Shown: positions 18,358 to 63,193, counted from the first letter of the stretch. The stretch is DNA of 64,000 bases from Bdellovibrio sp. (GCA_036677065.1 JAKFBS010000004.1:608001-672000), one strand, 5' to 3'. Translations and numbers: made by a program. The notes: generated by a model from the sequence alone, not told the origin.

Positions 18358-18376
18358 ATATTGTATAAGTACGGTT

Positions 18377-31039: not shown

Positions 31040-31046
31040 GTTACCT

Positions 31047-34000
31047 GTGGTGAACGTACGTTGGCAGACTAAAAATCTGAATCTTTTTGTAATCGTTTTT
31101 GTATTCATGTTTATGAATACATCACCGACATTTGCCGGACCAAATCGCACAACCTATCAAGCTAAAATTGTAAAACCAGATGGCTATCCACTTGAATCTT
31201 CGAGCGTTAATTTTAAATTTACAATTTTAGATCCGACCGGAAGTTGTATTTTATATGCTGAAACTTATTCTTCAGTGAATATGTCTTCAACTGGCGGATT
31301 AATTTCTTTCTCGTTAGGATCTGGCGTTAAAACATATCCAGCATCAGCTACAACATTTGAACAGGTTTTTTCTAATATCACTCCGACGTTATCTTGTGAT
31401 GCCGGTGGACCGCCAAGTTATTCTCCGGCAAGCAGCGACGCGCGAAAAATCGTGATGCAGTTTCATGACGGTGCCGGTTGGCAAACTTTGCCTGCGATGA
31501 GCATCAACGCTGTACCATATGCAATGTACGCCAGTGAAGCTTCTAGCTTAAATGGTAAAACTGATGCTGACTTTGTTCAGCTTGCATCGGTGCCAACGTG
31601 TTTAACAACAGAAGCTCTGCATTACAACGGCACTAGTTTTTCGTGTGTGAATACGGCGAGTGTTTCTGCAGCGGCCGTGGTTTCTGCATTAGGTTATACT
31701 CCCGCAGATGCGGTGAGCGTGACAGCGCTGAGCTCTTCGTTATCGACGACAGATTCGGCAGTGTCGGCTGTATCAGCTTCTGTATTTTCAGTAGCCGCTA
31801 ATGTCGCTTCGGTTTCGTCAAGTGTGTTTGCTGTTTCTTCAACGGTTTCATTATTAGCTAATACAGTTTCTGCGATCACGTCATCGCAATGGACATCAAG
31901 CGGAACAACAGTTTTTTACAATGCTGGAAATGTAGGAATCGGCACAGATAATCCGATCACCACATTAGAAGTGAGCGGAGCAATTACTGCGACTAACGGA
32001 GCGGGCACATTAAATTTACGTGCAGGCGCTGTGCAAGATCATACTTATATGCAATTTTTTGCTCGCAGTGCAAATCCAGCATCACGTACAGGTTATATTG
32101 GATATCCCACAGCTGGCACAAGCCAGCTTAACATCTACAATGAAACTGCAGCTGGCGCCATCGGATTTGGCACTAATGCCACCTCACGCATGATGATCAC
32201 GTCTGCCGGTAATATAGGTATTGGTACAACATTGCCGATGACTAAATTAGAAGTTTCTGGCGGCGTACGCATCAGTATGGAAGCTGCAACTTGTACTGTC
32301 AGTTATGCCGGAACTCTACGTTATAATTCTGGTTTAGTTGAATATTGTAATGGCGCTTCATGGTCAGCATTTGGTGTGGCCGGTGCAGGGATTACTTTAT
32401 TTAATGGTTCATCTTCTGGCACACAAACTTTTGTGACGGGAATCAGTGGAACTAATTTTGATATTACTTCTTCAAATGGCGTTCATACTTTCAGTATTCC
32501 GTTAGCAGCTTCTTCGTCTGTAACTGCCGGTTTATTATCAAATGCAGATTACACGGCGTTCACAAACAAAGTTAGTGCAACTAGTGCTTCTGTAATTTCA
32601 GCTTTAGGTTATGCACCAGCAAGTGCAACAGGCGTTGCGACTTTAACTTCGAATTTAAATACGGTTTCATCGACGGTTTCTAGTTTAACGGCATCTACTG
32701 CAGCAAGTTTTTCTGCAATTACTTCTTCGCAATGGGTTACAAGCGGTACCGCGATTTACTACAACACAGGTGGAGTTGGTATCGGTACATCAAATCCATC
32801 AAGTGGATTAACAGTTAACGGACAAGTTGCATTTCAAAATGGTTCTGGCACGGGAATCGGCGCCGTGTTTAACAATGCAGGATCTTTAAATTTTCAGGCG
32901 AATTCGAATTCAAATGGGTTACAACTTGGAACTTCGACGGCAAATCCAATATCTCTTTATACAAATGGTTCAACAAAAGTAACTGTAACTTCTGGCGGAT
33001 ATATGGGGCTTGGAACTTCGGCTCCGATTTATAATCTGGATATTGCTGGCGGCAGTAATGCAGCCGCTATTGGTATTACAGGCTCAGGAAATAGCGGGCA
33101 CACTTCAACTTTATATCTAAATTCAACTGCGGTTTCTGCAACTTCTTATGTAAGACAAGATTCTTTTGGAAGTTATGCTGCAGGAACTGGTTCGAACGGA
33201 CATGGATTAAACTTTCTATCGGGTCGTCCGGGCTATAGTAATTTTACATTCCGTGATAGCAATGAAAACGTGGGCGTTGCCATCGTTAGTGATTACACAA
33301 AAGTAACTTCAATGCCATATGCTGCCCACTTATTAGTAGGTGGTAATGTGGGTATCGGCCGTATTGCTCCGGTTACAAAACTAGATGTTGCCGGCGGTGT
33401 GAAAATCAGTATGGAAGCTGCGACATGTGCGGCAAGTTATGCGGGTACTCTACGTTATAATTCGGGTTCTGTAGAATACTGTAACGGAACTTCATGGGCC
33501 GCTTTCGGAGTTTCGACTTCAGGTTTAACTTCGTTAAATGGATCTAGTTCGCAAACACAAACTTTTGCAAATGGTGCAACAGGTACTCAGCCTGCGTATG
33601 TTACGACAAATGGAGTTCACACTTTAAATATTCCGTTAGCGTCTGCAGGTTCTGTGACTGCGGGTTTATTATCAAATGCTGATTACGTTTCATTTTCAAA
33701 TAAAGTGAATGCAACAAGTGCAGCTATTATTTCTGCTTTAGGTTATACTCCTGCAAATAATGCAGCGTCGGGAACTTATGCCGTTAAATCTAATAATTTA
33801 TCTGATTTAACTTCTGCAACGGTAGCACGATCTAATTTAGGCTTAGGTTCAATCGCTTTATTAAATTCGGTTGATTTAAGCGGATCGCAAGCGACAGGAA
33901 CTTTAGCTGCAGCACGATTACCGGCACACACGGGCGATGTGCAGTCGTCTGCGGGTTCTGCCGTGTTAACTTTAGCTTCGGTTGGTTCAGGTGTAACAAG

Positions 34001-37000
34001 TGGTTCGCAATACACGAAAGTCACTGTTGATGGTAAAGGCCGCGTAACAAGTGGAGCGCAGTTATCTGTAACAGATGTGACGACTGCTTTAGGTTACACT
34101 CCGGCAAGTGCTTCGGCATCAACGCAGTGGATAACCAGCGGTACAGCGATTAGTTACGTTGCCGGTAGTGTTGGTATTGGCACTGTTAATCCGGAAGGCC
34201 CGTTACATATTTTATCAAGTTCGCCAAACGCCATTATTTTAGAAAGATCGAATTCTAATAATTCACATATTCAATATAAAAATACCGCAGGTTCTGTTTA
34301 TGCGGGCTTAAACATGACAGGTTCTTTTGCTATCGGGCCAAATTTAAATTTATCATCAAGCCCTTTTCTAACTGTGACCAGTGGAACAGGTAATGTGGGG
34401 ATTGGCATTGCCGCACCCCAAGAGCAGCTGCATTTAAGTAGAGTTTTAAAATTTACGAATACCGTAGGAGTCAGTAACTTTCGTGCACCAACAGCCGATA
34501 GTTTCAGAATTTTTAACCACGACGATCAAAGCACTGGTAATGCCTACGGCACTGGTGATAATAACGCGATTATTTTTGAAAATGTTGACAGTAATAATCC
34601 GGCACCAGACGACAGTATGTATTTTGTAAATCATGGGTCGAGCGGACCGGTACATGCCCTGACCATCAAGGGAACTGGCAATATAGGTATTGGATTAATA
34701 AACCCAACTGCTAAATTGCATTTAACTTCTGGTTCAACTTCAGTTGCACCGGTAAGAATGACTGCGGGAAATTTGTTATCGTCTCCACAAGCGGGAGCGA
34801 TTGAGTATGATGGAACTTCTTTTTATGTAACTGATGGTGCAAATTCACGTAAAGCTATCGTTACTGATACGAATGGTTATTACGCTGTTAATACTCTGAC
34901 ATCTGCGGGCCACATGATTTTAGCTCCGACTGGTTCAGTTTTTGTTTCTTCAACCGCAGTTTCAACAAACTCAAACACTGGCGCCTTAGTTGTGAGTGGC
35001 GGTGTCGGCGTTGCCGGAAATATTAATGCTGCTGGAAACATTACAACAACTGCAAATATGCAAGCGGCGTCGATCACGGCAACAAGCGGAATTATTTCTC
35101 CGTATATTGCCGGTAGTGTGGCTTCGGGTGGTGCGATCACAATTGATTCAACAACAAATGCCGGTAAAGGAAATATTTATTTAAACCCTAACGGCGGCAA
35201 AGTGGGTATTGGTTATAATTCACCACTCGGAAAACTTCATATCGGCGGATCAATGTCTGGAGCTTATCGCTCTTGGATGGATAACGGTCTATTGATAGGA
35301 AAATCTGGCGACAGTGATGGTGGTTATTTCGGTCTAAAAGACGAAGGTTTAAATCGTCAAGACACCGTCATTGCCTGGGGCGATGATGCAACTGATGTTT
35401 TAAGATTCATTCATACATTAAGTGGTGGGGCCTCTGATGGTGCTGAAGCTATGCGAATTACGGCTGGCGGTAATGTCGGTATTGGAACATCTGCACCTGC
35501 ACAAAGATTATCGGTGAATGGTGATGTGAGTATTACCGGTGATTTAAGAATGACTGGTAATGATAGCTACATTTGGACCAACGGATCAGGTACTGGATAT
35601 ACAGGAATTTGGGATACAGCTAATTCTAGAGCGTTACTTTTTACTTCAGAAAATTCAGGCAACGTGGGTATTAGAACGACAGCTCCTGTCACAGAGTTAG
35701 ATGTCAGCGGAAGTGTTTTGGTTCGTGGACAAAATATTTTTATGAATCATGATGCTGGTACGAATGTTAATAATGATTATTTTAATTATGATGATAATGC
35801 AGTTTTAGGCGCTGGCGGGGTATTTTCGTTCTTTGCAGATTCTGCGCGTGGTTTAAGTTGGACAGGCGCGAACGGCGCTATTGCCGCTCGAGCTGGTTAC
35901 TTTGTGAATAATGTATCTATCGGAACATCAGCAACGACAAGAACACTTGAAGTGAACGGTTCTATTAACGCCGGTGGTATGGTTGCAGAGACTTTTACTT
36001 TCGGAATCGATGGCACTGTGAATGGAACGTGGGCTATTGGTTCTTTATCAAATAATGGAACTGTCGTGCATGCAACGTTTGATCTTCACGTGCATAACGG
36101 CAGTACTATTGATGCCTTGAAGTTTCAAGTAAGTCTTCCGACCTATTCAAATGGAACTTTCTATTCAGGCTGGCAAGAGCTTCCGGTCGCATTTGGAAGC
36201 TCTGCATGGAATGGTCAGAAAAACTATGTTGTTGATGTATTGCGTACGTCGGCCTCTTCAGGTAATCCGATTTTCTTTCGTGTCAGAAATAAAGGCGGGA
36301 ATGGCTCGGCTTCAAGTATGAAAGTGCGTATGACTTATAACAGTGATCAAACTTTTACCCGTATCACTCACCAAAATACTGTAGGTACTGCATTTAATGC
36401 AGGAACTGCAGCAGCAGGTGGACCGGTTGATGGTATGTATGGTGCTTTAGAGTATTCATTTCCTGTAGCTGTTGGCCAGGGTTGGAGACCGGCTGATCAT
36501 AATGGCCTATTTGTTAAAAACAGTGGTTATGTCGGTATCGGCACAAGCACTCCAAGCGAAATGTTAGAAGTCAGCGGCAGTGTGAAAGCTACAGCTTACT
36601 TATACACTTCTGATCGCAGATTAAAAAAAGATATTATCACTTTGCCAGATGCTTTAGCTAGCGTGCTAAAACTTCGTGGTGTGAATTTCGTCTGGAAAAA
36701 CAATAATGAAAAAACTGTGGGTTTTATCGCGCAAGAAGTTGAAGCGGTATATCCAGAACTTGTAAAAACTGATAAAGTATCGGGCTTTAAAGCTGTTCAG
36801 TACGGAAATATCGTAGCGATTTTAGTTGAAGCGATTAAACAAGAAAATAAAGAACGTTTAGAGGCGCAAAACCGTTGCGAAGCTCAAATTGCAAACGTGC
36901 AACGTTCAGTAGCCAGTGGCAGTGATAAATCGGATGCGCGTATCAATCAGCTTGAAAAAGAAAATCTAGAGCTTAAAAATCGCTTAGAAAAAATCGAGAA

Positions 37001-37025
37001 ATTCTTAAACGAAAAAGTAAAATGA
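31047..37025 (+). CDS. Fibre 1: secreted mosaic trimeric fibre adhesin with C-terminal peptidase S74 chaperone
   Basis: 1992 aa. Signal peptide ending TFA, conserved N-domain (TTYQAKIVKPDGYPLE), GNVGIGT and ALGYTPA repeats, tail-fibre repeat YTKVTVDGKGRVT, and S74 SDRRLKK (Ser codon at 36609) with GFIAQEV. Confidence 0.9.
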   Translation: MVNVRWQTKNLNLFVIVFVFMFMNTSPTFAGPNRTTYQAKIVKPDGYPLESSSVNFKFTILDPTGSCILYAETYSSVNMSSTGGLISFSLGSGVKTYPASATTFEQVFSNITPTLSCDAGGPPSYSPASSDARKIVMQFHDGAGWQTLPAMSINAVPYAMYASEASSLNGKTDADFVQLASVPTCLTTEALHYNGTSFSCVNTASVSAAAVVSALGYTPADAVSVTALSSSLSTTDSAVSAVSASVFSVAANVASVSSSVFAVSSTVSLLANTVSAITSSQWTSSGTTVFYNAGNVGIGTDNPITTLEVSGAITATNGAGTLNLRAGAVQDHTYMQFFARSANPASRTGYIGYPTAGTSQLNIYNETAAGAIGFGTNATSRMMITSAGNIGIGTTLPMTKLEVSGGVRISMEAATCTVSYAGTLRYNSGLVEYCNGASWSAFGVAGAGITLFNGSSSGTQTFVTGISGTNFDITSSNGVHTFSIPLAASSSVTAGLLSNADYTAFTNKVSATSASVISALGYAPASATGVATLTSNLNTVSSTVSSLTASTAASFSAITSSQWVTSGTAIYYNTGGVGIGTSNPSSGLTVNGQVAFQNGSGTGIGAVFNNAGSLNFQANSNSNGLQLGTSTANPISLYTNGSTKVTVTSGGYMGLGTSAPIYNLDIAGGSNAAAIGITGSGNSGHTSTLYLNSTAVSATSYVRQDSFGSYAAGTGSNGHGLNFLSGRPGYSNFTFRDSNENVGVAIVSDYTKVTSMPYAAHLLVGGNVGIGRIAPVTKLDVAGGVKISMEAATCAASYAGTLRYNSGSVEYCNGTSWAAFGVSTSGLTSLNGSSSQTQTFANGATGTQPAYVTTNGVHTLNIPLASAGSVTAGLLSNADYVSFSNKVNATSAAIISALGYTPANNAASGTYAVKSNNLSDLTSATVARSNLGLGSIALLNSVDLSGSQATGTLAAARLPAHTGDVQSSAGSAVLTLASVGSGVTSGSQYTKVTVDGKGRVTSGAQLSVTDVTTALGYTPASASASTQWITSGTAISYVAGSVGIGTVNPEGPLHILSSSPNAIILERSNSNNSHIQYKNTAGSVYAGLNMTGSFAIGPNLNLSSSPFLTVTSGTGNVGIGIAAPQEQLHLSRVLKFTNTVGVSNFRAPTADSFRIFNHDDQSTGNAYGTGDNNAIIFENVDSNNPAPDDSMYFVNHGSSGPVHALTIKGTGNIGIGLINPTAKLHLTSGSTSVAPVRMTAGNLLSSPQAGAIEYDGTSFYVTDGANSRKAIVTDTNGYYAVNTLTSAGHMILAPTGSVFVSSTAVSTNSNTGALVVSGGVGVAGNINAAGNITTTANMQAASITATSGIISPYIAGSVASGGAITIDSTTNAGKGNIYLNPNGGKVGIGYNSPLGKLHIGGSMSGAYRSWMDNGLLIGKSGDSDGGYFGLKDEGLNRQDTVIAWGDDATDVLRFIHTLSGGASDGAEAMRITAGGNVGIGTSAPAQRLSVNGDVSITGDLRMTGNDSYIWTNGSGTGYTGIWDTANSRALLFTSENSGNVGIRTTAPVTELDVSGSVLVRGQNIFMNHDAGTNVNNDYFNYDDNAVLGAGGVFSFFADSARGLSWTGANGAIAARAGYFVNNVSIGTSATTRTLEVNGSINAGGMVAETFTFGIDGTVNGTWAIGSLSNNGTVVHATFDLHVHNGSTIDALKFQVSLPTYSNGTFYSGWQELPVAFGSSAWNGQKNYVVDVLRTSASSGNPIFFRVRNKGGNGSASSMKVRMTYNSDQTFTRITHQNTVGTAFNAGTAAAGGPVDGMYGALEYSFPVAVGQGWRPADHNGLFVKNSGYVGIGTSTPSEMLEVSGSVKATAYLYTSDRRLKKDIITLPDALASVLKLRGVNFVWKNNNEKTVGFIAQEVEAVYPELVKTDKVSGFKAVQYGNIVAILVEAIKQENKERLEAQNRCEAQIANVQRSVASGSDKSDARINQLEKENLELKNRLEKIEKFLNEKVK

Positions 37026-38497
37026 AAAAGCTTTTAGTTTTACTTGTTTTTATGCCCATGCTGATCGGGATTAATAACCTGACCGATGGCTATCGGATTC
37101 CTGCCGCCGGTGGATCAATGCGCATCTATGCGAAAAATGGCGGCGCTCAGGGAGCTTGTTATACGGTTCAAAATAATCACGGAACAAATGACTTATTTGT
37201 CCCGACAAAGTCCACGACCGAGTGGGCATCGTTTATTACTAATGCACCAACCTTTGTTGCAAAAGCTTTATGTCAGCCAAAATCATGTAAAGAGATTATG
37301 ACTTTAATGGGGAATCCTGCTGACGGAGTTTACACCATTGATTCAGATGGCGCCGGAGCCGGTGCTTCCTATCAAACTTACTGTGATATGACGACAGACG
37401 GCGGCGGCTGGACAAGAATTTTTCGCCATCATGTGCAAGGCGGATATTTCGCAACGACATCTGATGCGATCAGTAAAAATACGAACGATGCCAATCACAA
37501 TCTGTATTCGGCATTAGATAAAATTCCTGATTTTATCAGTAATGGAAAATATCGCTTTCGTATGAATTGGCCAGGTTATTCAGAGAAAAATATTTGGATA
37601 CAGACAACGAATCCATTAGACGATGTGGATGTAGCGGGTGTTGTTCCGATTGCAGTGAATACCTTTACACAAACAAGATTACTTAATTGGGGTGGAATTG
37701 AACTGGGTAACGGGACACATGGCCCAACCAACGGAGATGCTTCATTAATTGATGGATCTATTGAACATGGCAATTGGTTTTTTGCCATTGGCAGTGATGC
37801 TCCATATTCTACTCCGCCGGGCATTCCGGCCGATACGCCGCTTCTTGCTAGTGGTGGGGTTTCTGAAACGGTGTTATGGATTAAAGAAGATGATGTCGTC
37901 GTGTCTTACAACTCATGTAAAGCGATTTTAGATGCGGGTGCGTCAACAGGTTCAGGAATTTACACAATTGATCCGGGAAGTCTTGGTTCACCAATTCCGG
38001 TTTACTGTGACATGACGAGCGATGGTGGCGGCTGGACACGAGCTTTTTATCATACCGCTTCGGGATCACTTTTTGTGAACAACGCAGAAGCGCTTTCAAG
38101 TAATCAGACAGCACCGCTGACCACAACAAAATATTCTATTTTAAATCGCCTGTCAGGATTTCTGCGTGCCGGAAAATTTGAATTAAAAATTGATTGGCCA
38201 TTGAGTCCGAATCCTACTATTAGAAATTGGTGGACACAAACCAGTGATTTTACTTCGCAACCAGTGGCAGGTTATGTCGGAGTTTCAATCGGCACATCAA
38301 CACAAGGCTGGGGCGGCTTAGAATACGGAACGCCCGGAACAACGCTTGCTGATGGTTCGGTGGGAACAGGTTCTTATTGGTATGCGATTGGCTTAAATGC
38401 ACTTTGGGGAGCAAACAATCCTGGGTTGCCATCGTCTGAAGAAGTTGCTGGGGCGCCAGACACGGGAGTACCCCGGGTCGAACTTTGGGTTAAGTAA
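37022..38497 (+). CDS. Secreted protein with two fibrinogen-like (YCDxxxxGGGW) domains, partner of fibre 1
   Basis: Two SCK...G(V/I)YTID...YCDMTxDGGGWTR units; ATGA overlap with the fibre 1 stop. Confidence 0.88.
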   Translation: MKKLLVLLVFMPMLIGINNLTDGYRIPAAGGSMRIYAKNGGAQGACYTVQNNHGTNDLFVPTKSTTEWASFITNAPTFVAKALCQPKSCKEIMTLMGNPADGVYTIDSDGAGAGASYQTYCDMTTDGGGWTRIFRHHVQGGYFATTSDAISKNTNDANHNLYSALDKIPDFISNGKYRFRMNWPGYSEKNIWIQTTNPLDDVDVAGVVPIAVNTFTQTRLLNWGGIELGNGTHGPTNGDASLIDGSIEHGNWFFAIGSDAPYSTPPGIPADTPLLASGGVSETVLWIKEDDVVVSYNSCKAILDAGASTGSGIYTIDPGSLGSPIPVYCDMTSDGGGWTRAFYHTASGSLFVNNAEALSSNQTAPLTTTKYSILNRLSGFLRAGKFELKIDWPLSPNPTIRNWWTQTSDFTSQPVAGYVGVSIGTSTQGWGGLEYGTPGTTLADGSVGTGSYWYAIGLNALWGANNPGLPSSEEVAGAPDTGVPRVELWVK

Positions 38498-38517
38498 TTT
38501 TAACAAGATTTAGATTC

Positions 38518-38534
38518 TGTTTCATGTTGAAACA
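38518..38534. promoter_or_regulatory. Palindromic operator upstream of fibre 2
   Basis: Perfect arms TGTTTCA-tgt-TGAAACA, starting 80 bp before the GTG. Confidence 0.75.
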
Positions 38535-38582
38535 ATCCACTAAACAAAAACCAAAATTAATCTTCATTTTAATGTCAAAAAT

Positions 38583-38590
38583 ACCGACAA
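38583..38590 (+). promoter_or_regulatory. sigma28-type -10 box, fibre 2
   Basis: ACCGACAA, 7 nt before the GTG. Confidence 0.65.
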
Positions 38591-38597
38591 GAATGCT

Positions 38598-41500
38598 GTG
38601 ATGGACGTTGCTGGAACCACTAAAAATTTGAATGTTTTTAGATTGTTAGTCGTTTTTATTTTTATAAACGCGTCGCTAGCTTTTGCCGGTCCAAATCGCA
38701 CAACCTATCAAGCCAAAATCATGAAGCCTGATGGTTATCCCTTAGAAGCTTCAACTGTAAATTTTAAATTTTCAATTTTAAGTCCGGCAGGCGATTGTAT
38801 TTTATATGCTGAAACTTATTCTTCTGTGAATATGTCTTCAACGGGTGGATTAATTTCTTTTGCTCTTGGTTCTGGAGTAAAAACTTATCCAGTATCGGCG
38901 ACGACTTTTGAACAAGTTTTTTCTAACATCACACCAAGTTTATCTTGTGATGTCGGCGGCCCAGGTAATTACGTGCCCCTGGCCAGCGATTCAAGAAAAG
39001 TTGTTATGCAGTTTCATGACGGTGCCGGATGGCAGACGCTTCCTGCAATGAGCATCAATGCCGTGCCATATGCGATGTATGCCAATGAATCTTTAAAATT
39101 AAATGGCAAAGCTGACACTGACTTCGTTCAGGTGGCTGCGATTCCGACATGTTTATCAACTGAAGCCCTTCAGTATAACGGAACCAGTTTTTTATGTGTA
39201 AGTACGACAACTGTTTCAGCAGCCGCTGTTGTTGCAGCTCTTGGTTATACACCGGCAACGGGTGCAAGTGTTACGGCACTTTCATCTTCATTATCAACAA
39301 CAGATGCAACTGTAGCTTCAGTTTCATCAGCGGTATTTTCTGTTTCTTCAACGGTATCAACTTTAGCAAGTTCTGTTGCGGCAAGTTTTACTTCGATTAC
39401 TTCTTCGCAGTGGTTAACTAGTGGCACGGCAATTTCGTATGATTCTGGAAATGTTGGCATCGGCACGACAGCACCAGTAACTAAATTAGAAGTTTCTGGC
39501 GGCGTGCGTATAAGTATGGAAGCCGCAACTTGTACTGTCAGTTATGCCGGAACTCTACGTTATAATTCTGGTTTAGTCGAATATTGTAATGGCGCTTCAT
39601 GGTCAGCGTTTGGCGTGGCCGGTGCAGGGATTACTTTATTTAATGGTTCGTCTTCTGGCACACAAACTTTTGTGACTGGAATTAGCGGAACAAATTTTAA
39701 TGTTACAACGAATAACGGAGTTCATTCTTTTAATATTCCGTTGGCAGCATCGGCTGCTGTGACGGCGGGTTTATTATCAAATGCAGATTATGTAACTTTT
39801 AATGCGAAAATGAATGCAACCAGTGCGGCGGTGATTTCAGCAATGGGTTACACGCCGGCAAATTCAAGCACGGTAGCAACACTTTCTTCAGTTTTAAATA
39901 CAGTTTCTTCGACGGTGACTAGTTTAACTTCAGATACTGCCGCAAGTTTTGCGGCGATCACTTCATCACAATGGGTAACTAGTGGTTCAACTATTAATTA
40001 CACTGCCGGCGCTGTAGGGATTGGAACTACGAATCCGGGTGCATTATTAGATTTAACTGCAGATCTTGGCAGTGGACCATCGCTAAATATATACAATACG
40101 AACACATCTGATGGTCGTTCGGTTATGCATTTTCGTAACGATAGAGTTTCAAGTCAAAGATACGAAGTGGGTATTGACCCAGGTGGTTCGACTACAAAAA
40201 ATTTCGCTGTTCGTGATTTGACAGCCTCGGGTTCACCAGTGCGCTTTGCGATTGCGCCCAATGGCAGAGTAGGTCTCGGCACAGCAAGCCCGCTGGCGCC
40301 GTTAGATGTTTCAGGAACAATTCGCAGTGCGATTACTGCTGATGGCAATTTTTTTACATTGCAAAGAACAGGAAATAGAATTCACTATGTGCAAGGCACA
40401 GGACAACTTTTACGATTAAATTCTGATAGTCCGACGACTTATGATTTTCAATTAGATGCGGCAAACGGAAATATTTTTATGGCCACAGGTTTTGGTAACG
40501 TGGGTATAGGAATCGCATCACCTAATGCAAGACTTCATTTAGCTTCGGGATCAATGACGGTAGCTCCGCTTAAAATTACCTCAGGTACACTATTGTCTGC
40601 AGCGCAAGCTGGTGCTGTTGAATATGATGGTTCTTATTACTACATCACTGATGGAGCAAATACCCGTCGCGCGATTGCAACAGTAGCAAATCCAGGAACC
40701 TACGATAACGCTTCAAATATTTCTTCTACAGGAAATATCACGATGACTCCAACGGGATCAGTGATTGTTTCAAGCACAACAGCTTCAACAAATTCTAGTA
40801 CTGGTGCTTTAGTTGTGAATGGTGGCTTAGGTGTAGCGGGCGCGATCAATGCCGCTGGCAACATTGCAACGACAGCAAATATCCAAGGAACATCGATCAC
40901 GGCAACCAGTGGAATGATCACTCCTTATATCTATGGATCGACGGCAGCGAGTGGAGTGTTAACTTTAGATTCAACAACGAATGCGGCTAAAGGCAATATA
41001 GTAATGAATCCATCCGGTGGCAATGTCGGCATTGGAACATCAGTTCCCACAACTAAATTAGCTGTAAATGGTGCAGCTGGAAGTGGACACGTATTTACTG
41101 TAACAAATACTTCAGCGTCAGCAGGCTATTCAGGTAGTTTTAATTTAGCCGCACCCAATTTAGCAAATGGAGAGACTTTATTTTTTAACATGGGTAAAGC
41201 AGCCTCAACAAATAATCGTGCAGCTGTTACCTATGTACATGCGGCAGACGGAAGTGCGAGCAACAGGATTTCTCTTGGATTTTTTGGGAACGACAATATA
41301 TTAAATACACTCGCAAGTGGAAACGTCGGTGTGGGAACAAGTGCTCCGACAACAAAATTATATGTAAGCGGAAATGGTTCTAATGCACAAATGACAATAG
41401 ATTATGGTGTAGGTGGAAAATTTGCTGAATTTAGAGCTGGAACTACTGGCTCTGCAATTGGTTACGACGCATCATCTGCTTTTAACATTGGACCTGTAAC

Positions 41501-45541: not shown

Positions 45542-45558
45542 TGTTTCATTGTGAAACG
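45542..45558. promoter_or_regulatory. Palindromic operator upstream of fibre 3
   Basis: TGTTTCA-ttg-TGAAACG, starting 80 bp before the GTG. Confidence 0.72.
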
Positions 45559-45606
45559 AAAACTTAAAGATTTTACTCCAAAAAGTTTTATAAAAGCGTC
45601 AAAAAT

Positions 45607-45614
45607 ACCGACAA
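45607..45614 (+). promoter_or_regulatory. sigma28-type -10 box, fibre 3
   Basis: ACCGACAA, 7 nt before the GTG. Confidence 0.65.
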
Positions 45615-45621
45615 GTTAAGA

Positions 45622-50367: not shown

Positions 50368-50389
50368 CCTGCGAAACTAGACCAGTTAA

Positions 50390-50428
50390 CGATTCGCTTT
50401 GAGACAAAACCTGTTTCAAATTGAGTCA
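50390..50428. promoter_or_regulatory. Two degenerate operator copies upstream of fibre 4
   Basis: CGATTCG-ctt-TGAGACA (50390-50406) and TGTTTCA-aat-TGAGTCA (50412-50428). Confidence 0.6.
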
Positions 50429-50445
50429 TTCCCTGTATCTAAAAT

Positions 50446-50472
50446 TAAAAACAAATTCAATTATTCCGATAA
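50446..50472 (+). promoter_or_regulatory. sigma28-type promoter, fibre 4
   Basis: TAAA-N15-TCCGATAA with canonical spacing, 7 nt before the GTG at 50480. Confidence 0.75.
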
Positions 50473-50479
50473 GTTAAGA

Positions 50480-53400: not shown

Positions 53401-55465
53401 CGGGGCTTCAGCTGCGACTGAAAAAATGCGTATCGATTTAAACGGTAATCTTGGGTTAGGAATCAATGCTCCGCTTGTTCCACTACATGTGCAAAAAGAT
53501 GCACCCGGTGGTTTAGTTGCCTATTTTCAAGGTGTAGGCTCGGGCGGAACCATTGTCGGTACAAATCAAAGCAATCCAGCTTCCGGTGGTTTAGTGCAGG
53601 GTATTGATGCTGCTGGTTCAGTCGGTACGTTAGCTTTAAATCCAATGGGCGGATTGGTGGGTTTAGGTACGTCATCGCCTCAAGGTAAGTTCAACGTTGA
53701 TTTGATAACTAACATAAACACCAGTGAAGTTATCCAGGCATATACATTTTCTTCTTCTCCAATGTGGGGTTTGCGTTTATCGCAGCGAAATAACAACAAC
53801 GTGATTTCATATGACTGGAAAACCAGAAATGCCTCGTCGACTGATATTTTAGCTATGACTATGGCCGCTTCTGGTCTAATTGGTGTCGGAACAAATGCTC
53901 CTCAAAAAGGTTTGCATGTGGTCTCTGGTTCAATGATTGGAACAACCGATGGTTTTCCGACAGAGTATGCATCAGTGCATAACGAATTTAATTCTGGCGT
54001 CTTAAAAAAATGGACAGAAACTTCTGGCAACCATGTTAATGCCGGCACCTATTCATTGGTATCTCCTGTATCTAATAGTGCGAAGGCCAGTCATAGTTTA
54101 GTAAATATTTTATTCATGGATGTGGCCTCGGGCGTGACAGTGACCGGTTCAAATCATAGTTTTTATAATTTTTCTTCACGTAATAGATATGCAGCTAATA
54201 CCGATAATGGTCATGTGAATCTGATGGTGGCTATTCGTAACGAATACGGCCACGAAAACAGTGTTCCTGCAAATTCTCCAACAACCAGCCAAGTATACGG
54301 GGCTCTATTTGTTCCGAATGCATTCACCGGCACGATTTCTAATTTGTATGATCTTTATATCAGTCCACCGACTGGCACTGGTACGATCGGAAAGCACTAT
54401 TCTATTTATCAAGCGGCTACGAGCGCTACAAATTACTTCGGCTCACGTGTTGGGTTAGGTACGGCAACTCCAGATGGTTCGTTGCATGTGGTGACTTCGT
54501 CATTACAATCTAATTCTCCAGCGTCAGGAATTTTCTTCGGAAAAAGTTTAGCTGATGATTACCAAATGCAATTAACGCAAAATGGCGGCACTCCTCATAT
54601 TGATTTCTCTCGTCTTTCGGGTCGCGACTATGATGCGCGAATTTCAACTCCGGCAAACAGCACTTTATCACTAGGAACCGCTTCGCAAAGCATGTTATTA
54701 AATTTATTTAATAGTTATGTCGGTATCGGAACGTTGACTCCGACCCGAGCATTGCAAGTAGGAACAACTTCTGGTTGGCAAGATGGTTCAGGAATTTTAG
54801 TTAAAGGTTCAAATCCTGGAGTTGAATTGGCCGATACGCAAACTGTTCCACAACGTTGGTTAGTGGCCAATGGTGTGACTGTACCCAATGATGGTAATCT
54901 TGGATTAGCGTTTAACGTAAACACCAGCACGCATAATATCGTGGTCACCTCAGGTGGCTTGGTAGGGATCGGCACGTTAACTCCCGATGATAAATTTATG
55001 GTGTATAACGGAGTATCAATTGGCCGTTATACAACGACCGGGTGGACACACGTTTCAGATGCAAGATACAAACATGACATTAAAGATTTAGACAGTTCGT
55101 TAAATAAAATTCTGCAACTTCGCGGTGTAGAATATAAATTTAATAATGATCCAGAAAATAAAAATCAATTAGGCTTTATCGCGCAAGAAGTTGAACCTAT
55201 TTTTCCTGAAGTTGTTGTGACAGACAAAAAAGGATTTAAATCAATGGTGTATGCCAACTTAGTGGCGCCTTTGGTCGAGTCGGTAAAATCGCTGTATGTC
55301 CAATTAAAAGAAAATATTCTCGAAACGAGACAGAATTCTCGTAAGATCGCGTCGCTTCAACAAGAAAATGAAAAACTTAAAAACGAAAATCTGCAAAAAG
55401 CCAAAGAACTTGACGACGTCAAATCGCGCTTAGAACGTCTAGAGAAATTGTTAAATTCGAATTAA
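50480..55465 (+). CDS. Fibre 4: mosaic fibre adhesin with S74 chaperone (start re-assigned from 50399 to the GTG at 50480)
   Basis: The in-frame GTG matches the promoter spacing and signal-peptide layout of the paralogues. SDARYK (Ser codon at 55055) and GFIAQEV are present. Confidence 0.88.
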   Translation: MNLPPRKNKTLSMFLFFVFIFMNAMSAFAGPRHTTYQAKIIKPDGLPLEAASVNFKFSILDPAGACVIYAETFSSVNMSGAGGLISFSLGSGVKTYPVSATTFEQAFSNITPSLSCDAGGPVSYSPLADDVRKIVMQFHDGGGWQTLPAMNINAVPYAMYANDAQKLGGVSATAFVQDTDLATCAGGQALFYNGTSFSCVAVGGGGVTSSTIAAALGYTPADDAAMTSNVSSVSTTVFSVSSTVASLSSSVSTLSSTVAASFAAITNSQWVTSGTTISYNGGYVGIGTSDPKGVLDVSSSGTTNLGAVTALPLQLRGSGSDTTATGIAIYNPSNPTGSFFGITFTGASFTGTRLGIPNLSNGVLLYGNSAATQPVSFVAIGTSTAAPIYLSTNNVIRQTIAPSGNVGIGTTTPVTKLDVSGGVRIGMESGSCAADLAGTLRYTSGNVEYCNGTTWQAFGTGGAVTSSSIAAALSYTPANTTTVETSFTTLTNLFNTTGTSVTTLTSTVNNLSSSYTILASAVSGITNSQWVTSGTAISYSSGNVGIGTSAPTKLFQVNWSPSAGWEMQHEFDVASNGPALNSAYDLGPSGEGRFNFVKARGTLANPTGVLNNDFLGTISFRGANASGTLVHAAIIRAIAAQDFVNTSAGSHLVFQTSSSGSATPSEKVRIDSQGNVGIGTTTPTINSTSATTLHIHNSLGKAAGIRFTNSGTGTTATDGVIIGKWNDDSTYGNGPIFWNYESSPITFATSSTERMVISAVGDVGIGVTSPTAALHIKAGTSATAALKLTSGTLLTSPQSGTIEYDGFNFYTTNGAGVRSAIGSSEVSSTMSLMDSGATFGSGHKTVMGGYDPNGLVWHIGVSGTQALDINSRYPGGPITMTIGGSEMMRVMGSTGFVGIGTQTPTQKLDVHGYMRSAAGSGGTPTDGGRLYFATNSSGPNYDLSYVGGYTDQAGNDGSGAGSRGGLVFATKSTTGASAATEKMRIDLNGNLGLGINAPLVPLHVQKDAPGGLVAYFQGVGSGGTIVGTNQSNPASGGLVQGIDAAGSVGTLALNPMGGLVGLGTSSPQGKFNVDLITNINTSEVIQAYTFSSSPMWGLRLSQRNNNNVISYDWKTRNASSTDILAMTMAASGLIGVGTNAPQKGLHVVSGSMIGTTDGFPTEYASVHNEFNSGVLKKWTETSGNHVNAGTYSLVSPVSNSAKASHSLVNILFMDVASGVTVTGSNHSFYNFSSRNRYAANTDNGHVNLMVAIRNEYGHENSVPANSPTTSQVYGALFVPNAFTGTISNLYDLYISPPTGTGTIGKHYSIYQAATSATNYFGSRVGLGTATPDGSLHVVTSSLQSNSPASGIFFGKSLADDYQMQLTQNGGTPHIDFSRLSGRDYDARISTPANSTLSLGTASQSMLLNLFNSYVGIGTLTPTRALQVGTTSGWQDGSGILVKGSNPGVELADTQTVPQRWLVANGVTVPNDGNLGLAFNVNTSTHNIVVTSGGLVGIGTLTPDDKFMVYNGVSIGRYTTTGWTHVSDARYKHDIKDLDSSLNKILQLRGVEYKFNNDPENKNQLGFIAQEVEPIFPEVVVTDKKGFKSMVYANLVAPLVESVKSLYVQLKENILETRQNSRKIASLQQENEKLKNENLQKAKELDDVKSRLERLEKLLNSN

Positions 55466-55493
55466 AAATCATATTATATTTGCTCTAATAACT

Positions 55494-55520
55494 TAATCAA
55501 AGTGCTATAAATTCCGATAG
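55494..55520 (+). promoter_or_regulatory. sigma28-type promoter, fibre 5
   Basis: TAAT-N15-TCCGATAG, 7 nt before the GTG. Confidence 0.65.
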
Positions 55521-55527
55521 GTTAGCT

Positions 55528-58500
55528 GTGAATACGGCTCGTAAGCAGATGCGTTTTTTATTGTTAGTTGCGGTCGCGACAATGTTGTTGCCGGCAATTA
55601 ACACATTTGCAGGCCCAGGGCAGACAACCTATCAAGCAAAAATTATTAAGCCCGATGGTTATCCACTTGAATCTTCAAGTGTGAATTTTAAATTTACAAT
55701 TTTAAATCCGGCGGGTGATTGTATTTTATTCGCTGAGACTTATTCTTCGGTGAACATGAATTCAACGGGTGGATTAATTTCTTTCTCGTTAGGATCAGGT
55801 GTAAAAACTTATCCTGTATCAAGCCCTACCTTTGAAGATGTGTTTTCAAATATTACACCCAGTCTTTCTTGTGATGCCGGCGGCCCAGTAAGTTATTCGC
55901 CATTAGCCACTGATATCAGAAAAATCGTGATGCAGTTTCATGATGGTAACGGCTGGCAAACATTGCCGGCCATGAATATCAACGCTGTCCCTTACGCGAT
56001 GTATGCCAATGATGCACTGAAATTAAATGGCAAAACCGATACTGATTTTGTGCAGGTATCTGTTGTGCCAACCTGTACGGCCAGTGAAGCCATTCGTTAC
56101 AACGGCACAAGTTTTTCTTGTGTGGACATTGGCGGCAGCGGAGCAGTCTCTTCGGGTTCAGTGATTACGGCCTTAGGTTACACTCCTGCTGATGGAGCAA
56201 GTTTAACCACAATCACATCAAATATTTCAAATGTTTCATCAACGGTATTTTCGGTTTCGTCGACGGTGTCTTCATTAACAAATTCTGTGGCAGCCAGTTT
56301 TGCGGCGATCACTTCATCGCAGTGGCTAACATCAGGCACAACGATTAGTTATGAATCTGGAAATGTGGGTATCGGTACATCATCAAATGCTACAAAACTA
56401 GTTGTATCAGGTGGTGTGCGCATCAGTATGGAGCCCGCATCGTGTGATGCTACACTTGCCGGTACGTTACGTTATAATTCAGGGCTTGTAGAATATTGTA
56501 ATGGAGCTCTGTGGTCTGCGTTCGGGGTGGCCGGTGCAGGAATCACGTCAGTGAATGGCTCAACTTCAGGATCACAAACTTTTGCTACCGGAATTACCGG
56601 AACTGTTTTTAATATAACTTCTAATAATGGTGTACACACTTTTAATATTCCGTTAGCGGCTTCTGGTTCTGTGACTGCGGGATTATTATCAAATGCAGAT
56701 TATGCAACTTTCACGAATAAAGTCAGTGCAACAAGTGCTGCGGTAGTTTCAGCTTTAGGTTACACCCCTGCAAGTGCAACAACAGTTTCAGCTTTAACTT
56801 CTAATTTGGCAGCGGTTTCTGCCTCAGTTGCGGCGATCACTTCGTCACAATGGGTAACAAGTAGCACCTCAATTAATTACGTTGCAGGTAATGTCGGTAT
56901 AGGAACTGCAAACCCAACAGGATCTTTACATCTTGCTCTGAATAACTCGGGAACTGCAATGTCTACAATATCTGATGCATTTATTCTGCAAAATAAAAAT
57001 GCTGCAGCAAATGCTTTAACTTCAATAATGTTTGCCAATCAAGATGGCTTTGGTACGGGGCAAATCACAGCTTTACAAAACACAGGTAATTTCGGTTCGA
57101 AGATGATTTTCGGAACAAAATCTGGTGGCGGTGGAGCATGGAATACTTCGCAAATGGTCTTAGATACAAATGGCTATGTTGGTATTGGTACCGCGACCCC
57201 ACAGACACAGCTTGATGTTTCAGGAAGTGTAGTCATTGGAAATCTTGCGGCCAATAATGCCTCTCTTACAATTTATACACCAGATAGTGGATCAGCTTCG
57301 CATGGGGTTATACTTATCGATAAAGATGCCGGCTACGGATCATGGCAAAATCCATCGGGCCTTGATGGAATTGATGCCGATAGTTCGGGAACAGTCATCG
57401 GGTGGGGTCCACTTTATTTCAATTATTATTCAACGGATAATATTGATTTTAATAATGGGGGCGGAAACTCTTCATTTAATGGCCGCGTGGCTATTGGAAT
57501 GGGAAGCGCGCCAACAGCTAAATTGCATATCGCTGCTGGAACTTCTTCAACAGCAGCTTTAAAATTCGTATCTGGAACTTTATTAACTACGCCGCAAACG
57601 GGAGCTGTAGAGTTTAATGGGTTTAATCTGTATATCACCGATGGCACCGGCACTCGTAGAGCTATTGCTACGAGCTCTAGTTCTGGAACAATGGATAATG
57701 TTAGCAATATCAATGCATCGACTAATATGACGTTAACACCGGTAGGATCCGTGGTTGTGTCTTCGACCACGATATCAACATCAGCAAATACCGGGGCCCT
57801 GGTTGTCAAAGGTGGTCTTGGTGTGGCCGGAACAATCAACACCGCAGGAAGTTTAAATGTGTCGGGAACAGCTGCGATTGCTGGAACACTGAATTTATCA
57901 TCTATGACCAGCGGAAGTGTGCTTTTTGCCGGAGCAAATGGAACAGTTACTCAAAATAATTCTAGTTTATATTGGGATGGAGCAAACAGACGTTTGGGAA
58001 TTGGCACCAATGCACCGCAAATGAAACTTCATGTTGCTTCAGGCCCAGTATTAATTGGCGCAAACATCGGCGGCTATTCGACCGAGGGGTTGATCGTAAA
58101 TACCAGCTCGCAAAGAAGTGATATTAGTCTTATGCATTCAACAACTGGTGTTACTCAGACATCAGACGGTTTTAATATGGCTCTGGTTTTTAATAATGTT
58201 GATTTTGATCTTCGTGAAAATGGTTACATGCGTTTTTTAACAAACAGTGCCGAACAAGTTCGTATTACTTCAACAGGTAACGTCGGCATAGGTACAACTA
58301 CTCCTACGCATAAGCTAGATGTTATGGGCTATCTAAAAACATCGAACTACGGATCATCTGCCGGCTCTGCAGCTGGTTTGTATTTATATAGATCTCAGGG
58401 TGGCTCGGCAGGAGCTGAAGTTGCTCCTGCAGGTGGGGTCGGAGTTGGATTTCTTTCTTTTGCTGGCTATCGAGGTGACGCGACACTGGGAACAGGAGCC

Positions 58501-60324
58501 CTCATCGATGCTCAGACGCCGGTAGTTTCGGGCGCTTGGACAACTTCATCGACTCCTGCTTATTTGCGTTTTTTGACAACTGATGTTGGATCAACGGCAG
58601 GTGTTGTGCGTATGACGATTAAGGAAAATGGAGATGTCGGCATCGGCACATCGACTCCTGGAGCGCGCTTGCAGGTAGCAACACCTGCAAGTGGAGGCGT
58701 AAATAACCGTTGGGTTTCTGGTAATTCAAACGGTGATCTTATCGATATAACGGGCAGCAATGGTGATATGTATTTAGATCACAGTGTTGGCGCACGTATG
58801 ACGGCTTCAACATCAACGACAATAAATCGTGCAGCGACATTTAAAATTGACGCCGCACCAAATATAGATGCGGCAGCCTCTTCGACATTAATCGTAAATA
58901 ATCTTTACGCACTATGGGTTGAAGAGGGCACATCACTTTTTGGTGGTAATGTTGGCGTCGGAGTTTCAGGAACTCCGTCTTCGTACGGCCATGGTGGAAC
59001 AAATAAATTTATCGAAATTCAAAATCCAGGCACCACTGTAAATGCGCAATCGCACTTATTTTTAACCACAGGCGTGTCTGCAATTAGTGGAACTTCAATT
59101 GGAACCTTAACCTGGGCCCAGCCAAATGTTTCCAGCGTCAGAAAAGAAGTGGCGTGGATTAGTGCAAGTTCTGACTCGGCCAGTGGCGCAGCGCCAGCAG
59201 CGAATTTTCAAATTCATACTCGTTCAATGACTGATGCATCTCCGATTGAGCGTGTGCGCGTAACTGCTTCGGGCCGTTTAGGTATCGGGGTATCAAATCC
59301 TGTCACAATATTTTCAAATGTGGCATCTACAGCTAACCATTCTAATGTGGGTGATCAAAATGGTACTGGCGAAAATTCAAATTCATTGAGCTGGTCGACA
59401 AATTCAGCTGGTTATTCTGCCGCGATCACGAATACGTCGAATGGGGTGGGAGCGAATGGTTTAAATCTCAGAACGCTGGGAACAACTTCGAGTTACACGA
59501 TTCTATCAGCCGGAGTTGGTGTGAGTTCTACGGCAAATAGTTATGATGTTCTCACTGTAAAAGCCAGTCGACAAGTCGGCATCAATCAAGCTTCTCCGTT
59601 GGGCGCTTTAACAGTTAATGGAACCATGGCTCTTCAGCCCTCAACGAGTGATCATATTTATATGGAATTTTATGCGCGTACGGCAACGCCAACAACGCGT
59701 TCAGGCTGGTTTGGTTATGGCGTAGCAGGAACAAACTTACTTTCAATCACCAATCAAACTACGGGGCATATTAATATTGATCCAGCAGGCGGTGGTTTTG
59801 TAGGTATCGATAACGCAAATCCAACGCGCCTATTGCACGTCGGAAATTCAGCCATTGCGGCAGGAACTCCTGTAGCAAATTTTCAGAATGCTGACGGAAC
59901 ATGTACATTAACACCTGCAGCTGCGGGTTCGGGAGTGGCCTGTTCATCAGATGAAAGATTAAAAGAAAATTTTATTGATCTTGGTGGAATTAAAGCCTTA
60001 GAAAAAATCTTAAAATTTCAAGCCGTAAGTTATAATTTTAAAACAGCAAAAGATTCTGACCGTCACACAGGATACAGAGCTCAAGAAGTGCAAAAAATAC
60101 TACCCGAGATCGTGCGCACAGATGATAATGGTTTTTTTCAAGTTTATTACGATGCCCTAATTCCATGGATCACCGAGGCCATCAAAGAATTGTATTCTTC
60201 GCAACAAACACAAGCGCGCGAGATTGCCTCAGTCAAGGCCGAGAACGCTGAAATTAAAGCAGAGAATATGAAGCTAAAAGAACGTTTAGATCGCTTAGAA
60301 AAAGCTTTCAACGACAAAAAATAG
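55528..60324 (+). CDS. Fibre 5: mosaic fibre adhesin with S74 chaperone
   Basis: 1598 aa; N-domain, SDERLKE (Ser codon at 59947), GYRAQEV and a C-terminal coiled coil. Confidence 0.9.
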   Translation: MNTARKQMRFLLLVAVATMLLPAINTFAGPGQTTYQAKIIKPDGYPLESSSVNFKFTILNPAGDCILFAETYSSVNMNSTGGLISFSLGSGVKTYPVSSPTFEDVFSNITPSLSCDAGGPVSYSPLATDIRKIVMQFHDGNGWQTLPAMNINAVPYAMYANDALKLNGKTDTDFVQVSVVPTCTASEAIRYNGTSFSCVDIGGSGAVSSGSVITALGYTPADGASLTTITSNISNVSSTVFSVSSTVSSLTNSVAASFAAITSSQWLTSGTTISYESGNVGIGTSSNATKLVVSGGVRISMEPASCDATLAGTLRYNSGLVEYCNGALWSAFGVAGAGITSVNGSTSGSQTFATGITGTVFNITSNNGVHTFNIPLAASGSVTAGLLSNADYATFTNKVSATSAAVVSALGYTPASATTVSALTSNLAAVSASVAAITSSQWVTSSTSINYVAGNVGIGTANPTGSLHLALNNSGTAMSTISDAFILQNKNAAANALTSIMFANQDGFGTGQITALQNTGNFGSKMIFGTKSGGGGAWNTSQMVLDTNGYVGIGTATPQTQLDVSGSVVIGNLAANNASLTIYTPDSGSASHGVILIDKDAGYGSWQNPSGLDGIDADSSGTVIGWGPLYFNYYSTDNIDFNNGGGNSSFNGRVAIGMGSAPTAKLHIAAGTSSTAALKFVSGTLLTTPQTGAVEFNGFNLYITDGTGTRRAIATSSSSGTMDNVSNINASTNMTLTPVGSVVVSSTTISTSANTGALVVKGGLGVAGTINTAGSLNVSGTAAIAGTLNLSSMTSGSVLFAGANGTVTQNNSSLYWDGANRRLGIGTNAPQMKLHVASGPVLIGANIGGYSTEGLIVNTSSQRSDISLMHSTTGVTQTSDGFNMALVFNNVDFDLRENGYMRFLTNSAEQVRITSTGNVGIGTTTPTHKLDVMGYLKTSNYGSSAGSAAGLYLYRSQGGSAGAEVAPAGGVGVGFLSFAGYRGDATLGTGALIDAQTPVVSGAWTTSSTPAYLRFLTTDVGSTAGVVRMTIKENGDVGIGTSTPGARLQVATPASGGVNNRWVSGNSNGDLIDITGSNGDMYLDHSVGARMTASTSTTINRAATFKIDAAPNIDAAASSTLIVNNLYALWVEEGTSLFGGNVGVGVSGTPSSYGHGGTNKFIEIQNPGTTVNAQSHLFLTTGVSAISGTSIGTLTWAQPNVSSVRKEVAWISASSDSASGAAPAANFQIHTRSMTDASPIERVRVTASGRLGIGVSNPVTIFSNVASTANHSNVGDQNGTGENSNSLSWSTNSAGYSAAITNTSNGVGANGLNLRTLGTTSSYTILSAGVGVSSTANSYDVLTVKASRQVGINQASPLGALTVNGTMALQPSTSDHIYMEFYARTATPTTRSGWFGYGVAGTNLLSITNQTTGHINIDPAGGGFVGIDNANPTRLLHVGNSAIAAGTPVANFQNADGTCTLTPAAAGSGVACSSDERLKENFIDLGGIKALEKILKFQAVSYNFKTAKDSDRHTGYRAQEVQKILPEIVRTDDNGFFQVYYDALIPWITEAIKELYSSQQTQAREIASVKAENAEIKAENMKLKERLDRLEKAFNDKK

Positions 60325-60331
60325 TCTGCGA

Positions 60332-60348
60332 AATCTCAAATTGAAACA
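60332..60348. promoter_or_regulatory. Degenerate operator upstream of fibre 6
   Basis: AATCTCA-aat-TGAAACA, starting 117 bp before the GTG. Confidence 0.5.
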
Positions 60349-60434
60349 CTCGAAATTTTTTTAGAATGATCTAATTGTAGCAGTCGTTTACCAATGAAAA
60401 TCTGTTTCTGAAGCCTCTAGGAGTAAGCACTTTT

Positions 60435-60442
60435 GCCGATAA
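60435..60442 (+). promoter_or_regulatory. sigma28 -10 box, fibre 6
   Basis: Perfect GCCGATAA, 6 nt before the GTG. Confidence 0.75.
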
Positions 60443-60448
60443 GAAAGT

Positions 60449-63154: not shown

Positions 63155-63193
63155 AAACCAGCTAAAACTGAACTTTCAATGACGCATTATCAG

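Follow-up and report, generated by a model that had tools for sequence, protein, structure and literature searches.

Organisation of the locus

A 64,000-nt stretch from Bdellovibrio sp. (GCA_036677065.1, JAKFBS010000004.1:608001-672000; hereafter the window), part of a 3.39 Mb genome, carries an array of six genes for long fibre proteins of the mosaic adhesive trimer (MAT) type, F1 to F6, the first two of which are each followed by a partner gene, G1 and G2. A first-pass annotation of the window had described positions 31047-63154 as six co-oriented paralogues, and six long fibre open reading frames (ORFs) are indeed present, but the interval holds eight genes, G1 and G2 having been left out. 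By ORF calls and Pfam, these eight genes, all co-oriented, lie between uvrD and a 2-oxoacid dehydrogenase-like gene:

31047..37025, + strand: F1, S74-type MAT fibre, 1992 aa; GTG start, N-domain at 31137-31532, catalytic Ser codon at 36609
36525..36608, + strand: short aromatic tip of F1, proposed docking site, from the last linker to the predicted cleavage site; ends ATAYLYT
37022..38497, + strand: G1, partner gene; signal-like N-terminus, N-domain at 37070-37276, two fibrinogen-like domains; 4-nt overlap with the F1 stop
38598..44084, + strand: F2, S74-type MAT fibre, 1828 aa; catalytic Ser codon at 43710
43626..43709, + strand: short aromatic tip of F2, proposed docking site; ends ATAYLYT
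44081..45541, + strand: G2, partner gene and G1 paralogue; N-domain at 44129-44335; 4-nt overlap with the F2 stop
45622..50367, + strand: F3, S74-type MAT fibre, 1581 aa; non-aromatic tip, no partner gene
50480..55465, + strand: F4, S74-type MAT fibre; GTG start at 50480 (TTG at 50399 according to the ORF caller)
55528..60324, + strand: F5, S74-type MAT fibre, 1598 aa
60449..63154, + strand: F6, non-S74 MAT fibre, 901 aa; C-terminal tip without family match, missing in the sister genome G043

The unusual part of this locus is the partner gene. We consider it probable, on the comparisons presented below, that the locus represents a variable six-fibre MAT array in which the aromatic tips of F1 and F2 end in separately encoded caps, G1 and G2, predicted to dock on the tip and to bind prey. 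What the sequences show of this is the MAT membership, the order of the genes, module exchange at the linkers when sister genomes are compared, and a tip type that covaries with the partner type.

The fibres as members of the MAT family

Sequence comparison identifies the six fibres as new members of the known MAT family, whose definition comprises a signal peptide, an N-domain of ~130 aa, a capping-loop motif and a tip of S74 or other type; B. bacteriovorus HD100 has 21 members (PMC10769870). The first-pass annotation had pointed to a shared signal peptide, a common N-domain of ~130 aa, modules joined by GNVGIGT-type linkers and S74 motifs in five of the six proteins, and all of these features were recovered. 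The N-termini are hydrophobic and end in A-x-A-like sites (judged by eye), the N-domains span 132-133 aa and are 65-86% identical among the six, and each fibre contains 4-12 linker motifs. The motifs SDRRLK, SDERLK, SDRRLK, SDARYK and SDERLK are found in F1-F5 and none in F6; likewise, the Pfam family Peptidase_S74 (PF13884) matches F1-F5 with E-values of 4e-14 to 7e-19 and does not match F6. The N-domains of F1-F6 are 39-41% identical over 133-134 aa (E 1e-28 to 6e-32) to AHZ85081.1, the B. bacteriovorus 109J orthologue of Bd2582 according to Table S4 of PMC10769870 (P0265 in our protein set), so the N-domain does resemble that of Bdellovibrio fibre proteins. AHZ85081.1 is also the closest MAT by tip and S74 domain, with 78% identity over the aligned part of F2 residues 1672-1800. 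The capping-loop motif V-G-G/N-x-x-x-P-x-x-x-L is present between the modules of the fibres, with weak sequence matches at these motifs to the solved tips of Bd2133, Bd2439 and Bd1334.

The genome contains 16 S74 matches, together with 21 strong N-domain matches and a weak one, and its MAT-type genes amount to 116 kb, or 3.4% of the genome. Across 33 genomes of the genus, matches to the N-domain at E 1e-20 ranged from 0 to 26 per genome, with zero in 10, though the profile was built from this genome and distant members are therefore undercounted. The array thus shares with the MAT fibres of B. bacteriovorus the signal peptide and ~130 aa N-domain, the capping-loop linker, an SDxxxK S74 motif in most members, and about 21 genes per genome. 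It differs in that HD100 lists adjacent pairs only (bd0704/0705 and bd3266/3267), while six fibres lie in one slot here, and in that the fibres are longer than the B. bacteriovorus MATs, reaching 1992 aa. Self-cleavage, surface display and glycan binding have been demonstrated for B. bacteriovorus MAT members (PMC10769870), and it is by extension from that work that the array fibres may be assigned a role in prey recognition. In the same paper the tip is treated as part of the fibre chain, whereas we propose the tip as a docking site; its main text mentions neither fibrinogen, operon, tandem nor neighbouring genes.

Tip type and partner type

Among the S74 fibres of this genome, only F1 and F2 have a predicted mature end that consists of a bare linker and ATAYLYT, and the genome's only two genes with the partner domain adjoin these two fibres downstream. 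The same order, fibre gene then partner gene, recurs in relatives. When distinct S74 tips were tabulated across loci of the order with 400 nt or more of downstream sequence, 27 of 43 aromatic tips were followed by this partner domain and none by another partner type, whereas FIST-type tips were never followed by it (0/29) and in 17 of 29 cases preceded a different, Cys/Trp-containing N-domain; these counts include kin that are not independent, so that Fisher values overstate the association, and the table is biased, as fibres with a partner supplied the tip profile and the partner itself served to locate some of the loci. Two other tips had neither partner type downstream.

An independent set of 84 metagenome stretches, chosen solely by a DNA pattern of the partner domain, yielded 78 distinct partner genes, and in 44 of these an S74 gene ends no more than 450 nt upstream. 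All 38 readable tips (37 distinct fibres) were aromatic, as in ATAFYYS and GPGFFYS, the remaining 6 being cut or unreadable. In these fibres the likeness is confined to the 4-5 residues that precede the cleavage site, the sequence further upstream being unrelated. For background, 3 of 29 S74 tips were aromatic, and all 3 had a partner (fetched by position or from this genome).

The second partner family begins with Cys-x-x-Pro-x-Gly ... Tyr-Cys-x-Gly-x-x-Trp and was seen behind fibres with FIST-like tips (loci L120, L126, L129, L136, L141, L144, L152, L158 and L160); a similar motif occurs inside MAT shafts, and a family member in the present genome (C2:794070-798278) adjoins a fibre whose tip is of neither type. 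Some metagenome loci (L234, L296, L307 and others) contain very short S74 proteins (open frames of about 200-350 aa) with aromatic tips, followed by a partner gene, which suggests minimal fibre-plus-cap units outside Bdellovibrionales.

Besides the bias and the kinship noted above, several observations weigh against docked caps. A neighbouring partner gene is missing for 16 of the 43 aromatic-tip fibres, including ATEFLYT-ending fibres close to the Bd2582 type (L113, L114, L117, L118, L167 and L168), for which either loss of the partner or its supply in trans may account. Conversely, of 53 metagenome partner genes whose upstream DNA extends over 900 nt or more, 21 have no S74 gene before them, and among 43 partner genes from less closely related genomes within the order an S74 gene precedes only 4, all 4 with aromatic tips; the partner domain therefore has other contexts or works in trans. 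Furthermore, sugar binding by G1 and G2 is a prediction from fold at 14-22% identity to ficolins and relatives, no Pfam match to the docking domain of phage gp38 (Gp38_N) was obtained for G1 or G2, and single MAT deletions in B. bacteriovorus were reported to cause a small predation defect or none (PMC10769870).

These counts also bear on a simpler explanation, in which the fibres are ordinary MATs, G1 and G2 are free secreted lectins, and tip, S74 domain and partner travel together merely as neighbours. The many partner-domain genes without an S74 neighbour would fit this, and the three elements could have descended as one block within Bdellovibrionales, given that the S74 domains of F1 and F2 group with that of P0265 in a quick tree. 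However, linkage would not keep the last residues aromatic in 37 metagenome fibres that are alike in the last 4-5 residues alone, and the other tip type goes with a partner type of its own, the two classes never crossing. We therefore regard free lectins as unlikely.

The partner proteins and their N-terminal domain

Both G1 and G2 consist of a signal-like start, a 70-residue N-domain without Pfam match and two Fibrinogen_C matches. An AlphaFold2 model of G2 (predicted local distance difference test score, pLDDT, 89.5) gave a ficolin-like fold for both C-terminal domains, and Foldseek returned ficolins and their relatives with a probability of 1.0, template modelling (TM) scores of 0.5-0.6 depending on the target and 14-22% identity. 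The predicted fold is thus that of fibrinogen-related domains such as ficolins, FIBCD1, tachylectin 5A and MFAP4, from which G2 differs in its low identity (14-22%) and in carrying two such domains in tandem behind a bacterial N-domain.

The partner N-domain modelled alone reached a pLDDT of 88.9. A fold search with it gave no clear match among solved chains (best Z 3.2) or viral models, and matches in the Atlas stayed below 0.9; a PHROG scan of 90 members returned two single weak matches, none of them consistent. By profile search, the domain was found in 2791 representatives at 50% identity, and it is present in 54 of the 357 genomes of the order, in metagenome contigs and in one protein named from Alphaproteobacteria. 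Short members were numerous in the profile search and absent from a single-query search. Among the matches listed, the domain starts within the first 60 residues in 147 of 150 members. What follows it varies: 27 of 65 longer members (hand-picked and scanned) had a Pfam match behind the domain, including GP38 (2), Gly_rich_2 (3), LamG (5), fibrinogen (2), Lcl_C or Fib_succ_major (6) and RCC1 (3). In sequence terms, a constant N-terminal module followed by changing binding domains is an adapter layout. Two proteins, P0277 and P0327, bear a signal peptide and combine the partner N-domain (twice in P0277) with a phage gp38-type glycine-rich adhesin domain; P0327 clusters with phage gp38 at 0.93. 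A pattern scan of viral sequence for the partner domain gave 25 stretches with one weak fragment and no S74 neighbour; it used a single exact pattern, so that phage members may nonetheless exist.

The corresponding unit in B. bacteriovorus

In strain 109J, Bb109J_c2389 (AHZ85081.1, with the tip AASYLYT) adjoins Bb109J_c2388 (AHZ85080.1), and AHZ85079.1 comes next. Both neighbours belong to the partner family, with identities to G1 and G2 of 46-47% and 60-63%. In HD100, Bd2582, Bd2581 and Bd2579 are listed as one mapped FliA operon (supplement of PMC3627812), with reads per kilobase per million (RPKM) of about 3530, 3750 and 2140, respectively, compared to 10-18 under conditions that we read as attack versus growth phase (PMC3627812). 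By length (475 and 488 aa) and gene order, Bd2581 and Bd2579 would be the two partners. In the literature searched, no text named bd2579, bd2581 or bd2582. The Bd2582 orthologue measures 1330 aa in 109J versus 1416 aa listed for HD100 (PMC10769870 Table S1), probably another module indel.

Similar levels of co-transcription, as well as the covariation with the tip, would suit any tip-binding helper, and T4 gp38 is a chaperone (PMC7917993). G1 and G2 might thus be chaperones comparable to T4 gp38 or Tfa, touching the fibre solely while it is assembled or exported and not being retained as a cap. Against this, the fibres bring their own S74 chaperone, and the partner N-domain bears many binding-type domains, including a gp38 adhesin, which a folding helper would not need. 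We give this possibility a low probability.

Promoter boxes and upstream palindromes

A putative FliA-type -10 box, CCGA(C/T)A(A/G)G, lies 13-14 nt upstream of the GTG in all six fibre genes, and a palindrome was located further upstream of the first three:

31033..31040, + strand: FliA-type -10 box of F1, 14 nt before GTG
38584..38591, + strand: FliA-type -10 box of F2
45608..45615, + strand: FliA-type -10 box of F3
50466..50473, + strand: FliA-type -10 box of F4
55514..55521, + strand: FliA-type -10 box of F5
60436..60443, + strand: FliA-type -10 box of F6, 13 nt before GTG
30968..30984, no strand assigned: palindrome TGTTTCA-N3-TGATACA before F1, 65 nt before the F1 promoter box
38518..38534, no strand assigned: palindrome before F2
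45542..45558, no strand assigned: palindrome before F3

The FliA-type attack-phase promoter of B. bacteriovorus reads TTAAG-N16-CCGATA (Karunker et al. 2013, PMC3627812). In the -35 region, TTAAA or TTAAT was found 15-16 nt before the box in F1, F4 and F5, and a weak equivalent in F2, F3 and F6. The mapped transcription starts of Bd2582, Bd3266 and Bd1712 coincide with the first base of the gene (PMC3627812 supplement), and because the box of the present fibres stands at the same distance from the start codon, each fibre is likely to have its own leaderless attack-phase transcript. The parallel with the FliA (sigma-28) regulon extends to the CCGATA-type box and its spacing; start sites and attack-phase expression have been mapped in the HD100 homologues, whereas here they are predicted from the sequence. 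For F4, the GTG at 50480 is more likely to be the start than the TTG at 50399, because it fits the family spacing to the promoter box. A single operon of six fibres was rejected, since each has its own box. A scan of positions 45000-64000 for sigma-70 promoters and terminators remained at chance level.

Genome-wide, the strict box pattern precedes 13 of 22 N-domain ORFs (background 8%), and a palindrome GT(C/T)TCA-N3-TGA(A/G)AC, with two mismatches allowed, precedes 18 of 22 (background 3%). There are 200 strand-counted sites of this palindrome in the genome compared to 60 in one shuffle. It is likely a regulator site for the fibre genes, and no description of it was found in the literature searched. 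The shared upstream cassette that the earlier annotation had singled out as unusual is therefore real, but it stands ahead of most MAT genes of the genome; a cassette specific to the array was rejected, both box and palindrome being family-wide.

The caps might also dock and yet function as decoys or in adhering to surfaces, hosts or kin, instead of recognising prey. The organism of the window is not in culture here, the partner domain also occurs in metagenome contigs and in the Alphaproteobacteria-named protein, and the number of close N-domain matches varies from 0 to 26 across genomes of the same genus. The FliA-type boxes, however, place these genes in the programme of the attack phase, prey glycans are bound by one MAT of B. 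bacteriovorus (PMC10769870), and the closest named relative, Bdellovibrio sp. qaytius, is an epibiotic predator (bioRxiv 10.1101/506055). A purpose other than prey binding thus seems rather improbable to us.

A variable slot behind uvrD

The array is framed by housekeeping genes, and no tRNA gene was found in the window:

28950..30959, + strand: uvrD/Rep-type helicase gene, conserved left flank of the slot (Pfam, synteny)
63534..64000, + strand: 2-oxoacid dehydrogenase acyltransferase-like gene, right flank of the slot, extending past the window end

UvrD is 91% identical to that of qaytius and 88% identical to that of Pseudobdellovibrio sp. HCB154. The slot behind uvrD holds no fibre in G026 (UvrD 97% identical), two fibres in qaytius, five fibres and one G gene in HCB154 and in G029 (spanning two contigs in the latter, with the join inferred), five fibres and two G genes in the sister genome G043, and six fibres and two G genes here. 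In most more distant relatives with DNA behind uvrD, fibres are absent from the slot. In HCB154, qaytius and G029, the array is separated from the right flank by other genes, and in the present genome the spacer after F6 (63154-63534) contains degenerate palindromes and one inverted repeat.

Compared to G043, four internal blocks set F1-F4 apart, F5 is colinear, and G043 lacks F6. Of the eight block ends, six fall no more than 30 nt from the start of a linker, against an expectation of 15% per site (binomial p 2e-4), with the caveat that alignment programs favour repeats; the remaining two ends are 139 and 179 nt away. Because the block ends cluster at linkers, exchange at these repeats is the likely source of the fibre mosaics. 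A single origin of all six N-domains was rejected in an approximately unbiased (AU) test (p=0.002), while a single origin of those of F1-F5 was not (p=0.11); the test used a tree of 21 own genes and two outgroups with 5000 replicates, below the program's advice. The slot tips of HCB154 have their matches, at 58-76%, at other loci of this genome. The proposal of a locally expanded repertoire is thus only partly right: it may hold for F1-F5 but not for the full array, and relatives fill their slot with tips that match genes outside the array here. Nor is the contiguous array the unusual part, as had been suggested: runs of 4-5 fibres also occur in HCB154, G029, G043 and G020, so the array is, by this comparison, a long case of a common arrangement and not unique. 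Further S74 fibre runs lie at other loci, namely five genes in G020 (L051, G020:C1:1322001-1342000) and a second cluster in HCB154 (L056-L058).

The absence of capsid, integrase or other tail genes noted in the first-pass annotation was borne out, in that Pfam found no such phage family among the 39 ORFs of the window, and a prophage tail remnant or contractile injection system is exceedingly improbable: PHROG tail-fibre families match F1-F5 and G1, but the signal-like N-termini and an N-domain matching Bdellovibrio MATs contradict it, no capsid, baseplate-core, sheath or integrase family occurs in the scanned ORFs, 21 family members are scattered over the chromosome, and the partner-domain pattern gave a single weak fragment in 25 viral stretches. 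Assembly collapse was excluded, as a possible source run covers the stretch evenly at a depth of about 110-135, with contigs free of any letter difference. Pieces of F1-F5, G1 and G2 were also found at 98-99% in three runs of one other study, and F6 showed a lower contig depth in three groundwater runs, which was not taken as evidence of absence. No RNA run was listed as holding the stretch. Positions 1-19228 of the window contain ordinary genes, among them a POTRA-domain gene with a 1330 aa TamB-like neighbour, efp, ruvCAB, lpxC, a competence gene, a LysM protein and dprA.

Proposed docked caps and the comparison with phage fibres

Under the docked-cap interpretation, each fibre would be expressed from its own FliA-type promoter, exported, trimerised via its S74 chaperone and displayed on attack-phase cells, cutting itself before the catalytic Ser, all by analogy with the family. 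Cleavage would bare three copies of the aromatic last strand, to which the 70-residue N-domain of the partner could bind in the way that gp38 binds gp37 of T2-like phages, and the two fibrinogen-like domains of the partner might then read glycans on the prey surface. Shaft modules and caps would be swappable independently of each other.

In T2-like phages, gp37 loses its chaperone by cleavage and three copies of its last five residues form the docking surface, on which gp38 docks by its N-domain; the last strand, the chaperone and the adhesin gene are exchanged together (PMC7917993). As for gp37 and gp38 of phage S16, the gene of an S74-type chaperone fibre is here directly followed by a separate partner gene, with 4-nt overlaps in F1/G1 and F2/G2, and relatives of G1 and G2 (P0277 and P0327) carry a GP38 domain in the corresponding position. 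In contrast to the S16 proteins, G1, G2 and their fibres are cellular, bear signal peptides and lie outside any phage tail context; moreover, the N-domain of G1 and G2 has a different, predicted beta-rich, disulfide-type fold with no sequence match to Gp38_N, and fibrinogen-like domains replace the glycine-rich GP38 receptor-binding domain.

More generally, S74 fibres may use a plug-and-socket code, a proposal for which we see even chances. The last 4-5 residues, bared by self-cleavage, would select the class of a separately secreted cap; the 70-residue domain would hang lectin, propeller or gp38 adhesin domains on aromatic tips, and a second tip type would take a second cap family. The 70-residue domain, with its roughly 2,800 clusters at 50% identity, would then be a widespread attachment module. 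If products of stand-alone cap genes were also loaded in trans onto the same fibre, as they could be, the repertoire for prey recognition would be combinatorial. A two-part fibre-plus-cap design for bacterial MAT or S74 surface fibres was not found in the literature searched, and the comparative-genomics literature searched contained no passage on fibres. To that extent the fibre-plus-cap interpretation would be new, while the fibre family and the array arrangement were already known.

By itself the array is of modest interest, though it offers a good natural record of MAT mosaics arising via exchange at linker repeats. Prey choice by predatory bacteria, on the other hand, is a long-open question for which MAT fibres are the current lead, and in the 2024 work a ligand was found for one of six MAT tips tested (PMC10769870). 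If some S74 fibres are mere sockets, the binding part would be a different and so far unassayed protein, which in B. bacteriovorus would already be mapped in one attack-phase operon with its fibre; Bd2582 with Bd2581 and Bd2579 makes the plug-and-socket proposal testable in the model predator. If true, a large unnamed domain family would gain a function, and cells, like T-even phages, would divide the fibre into a shaft and an exchangeable adhesin.

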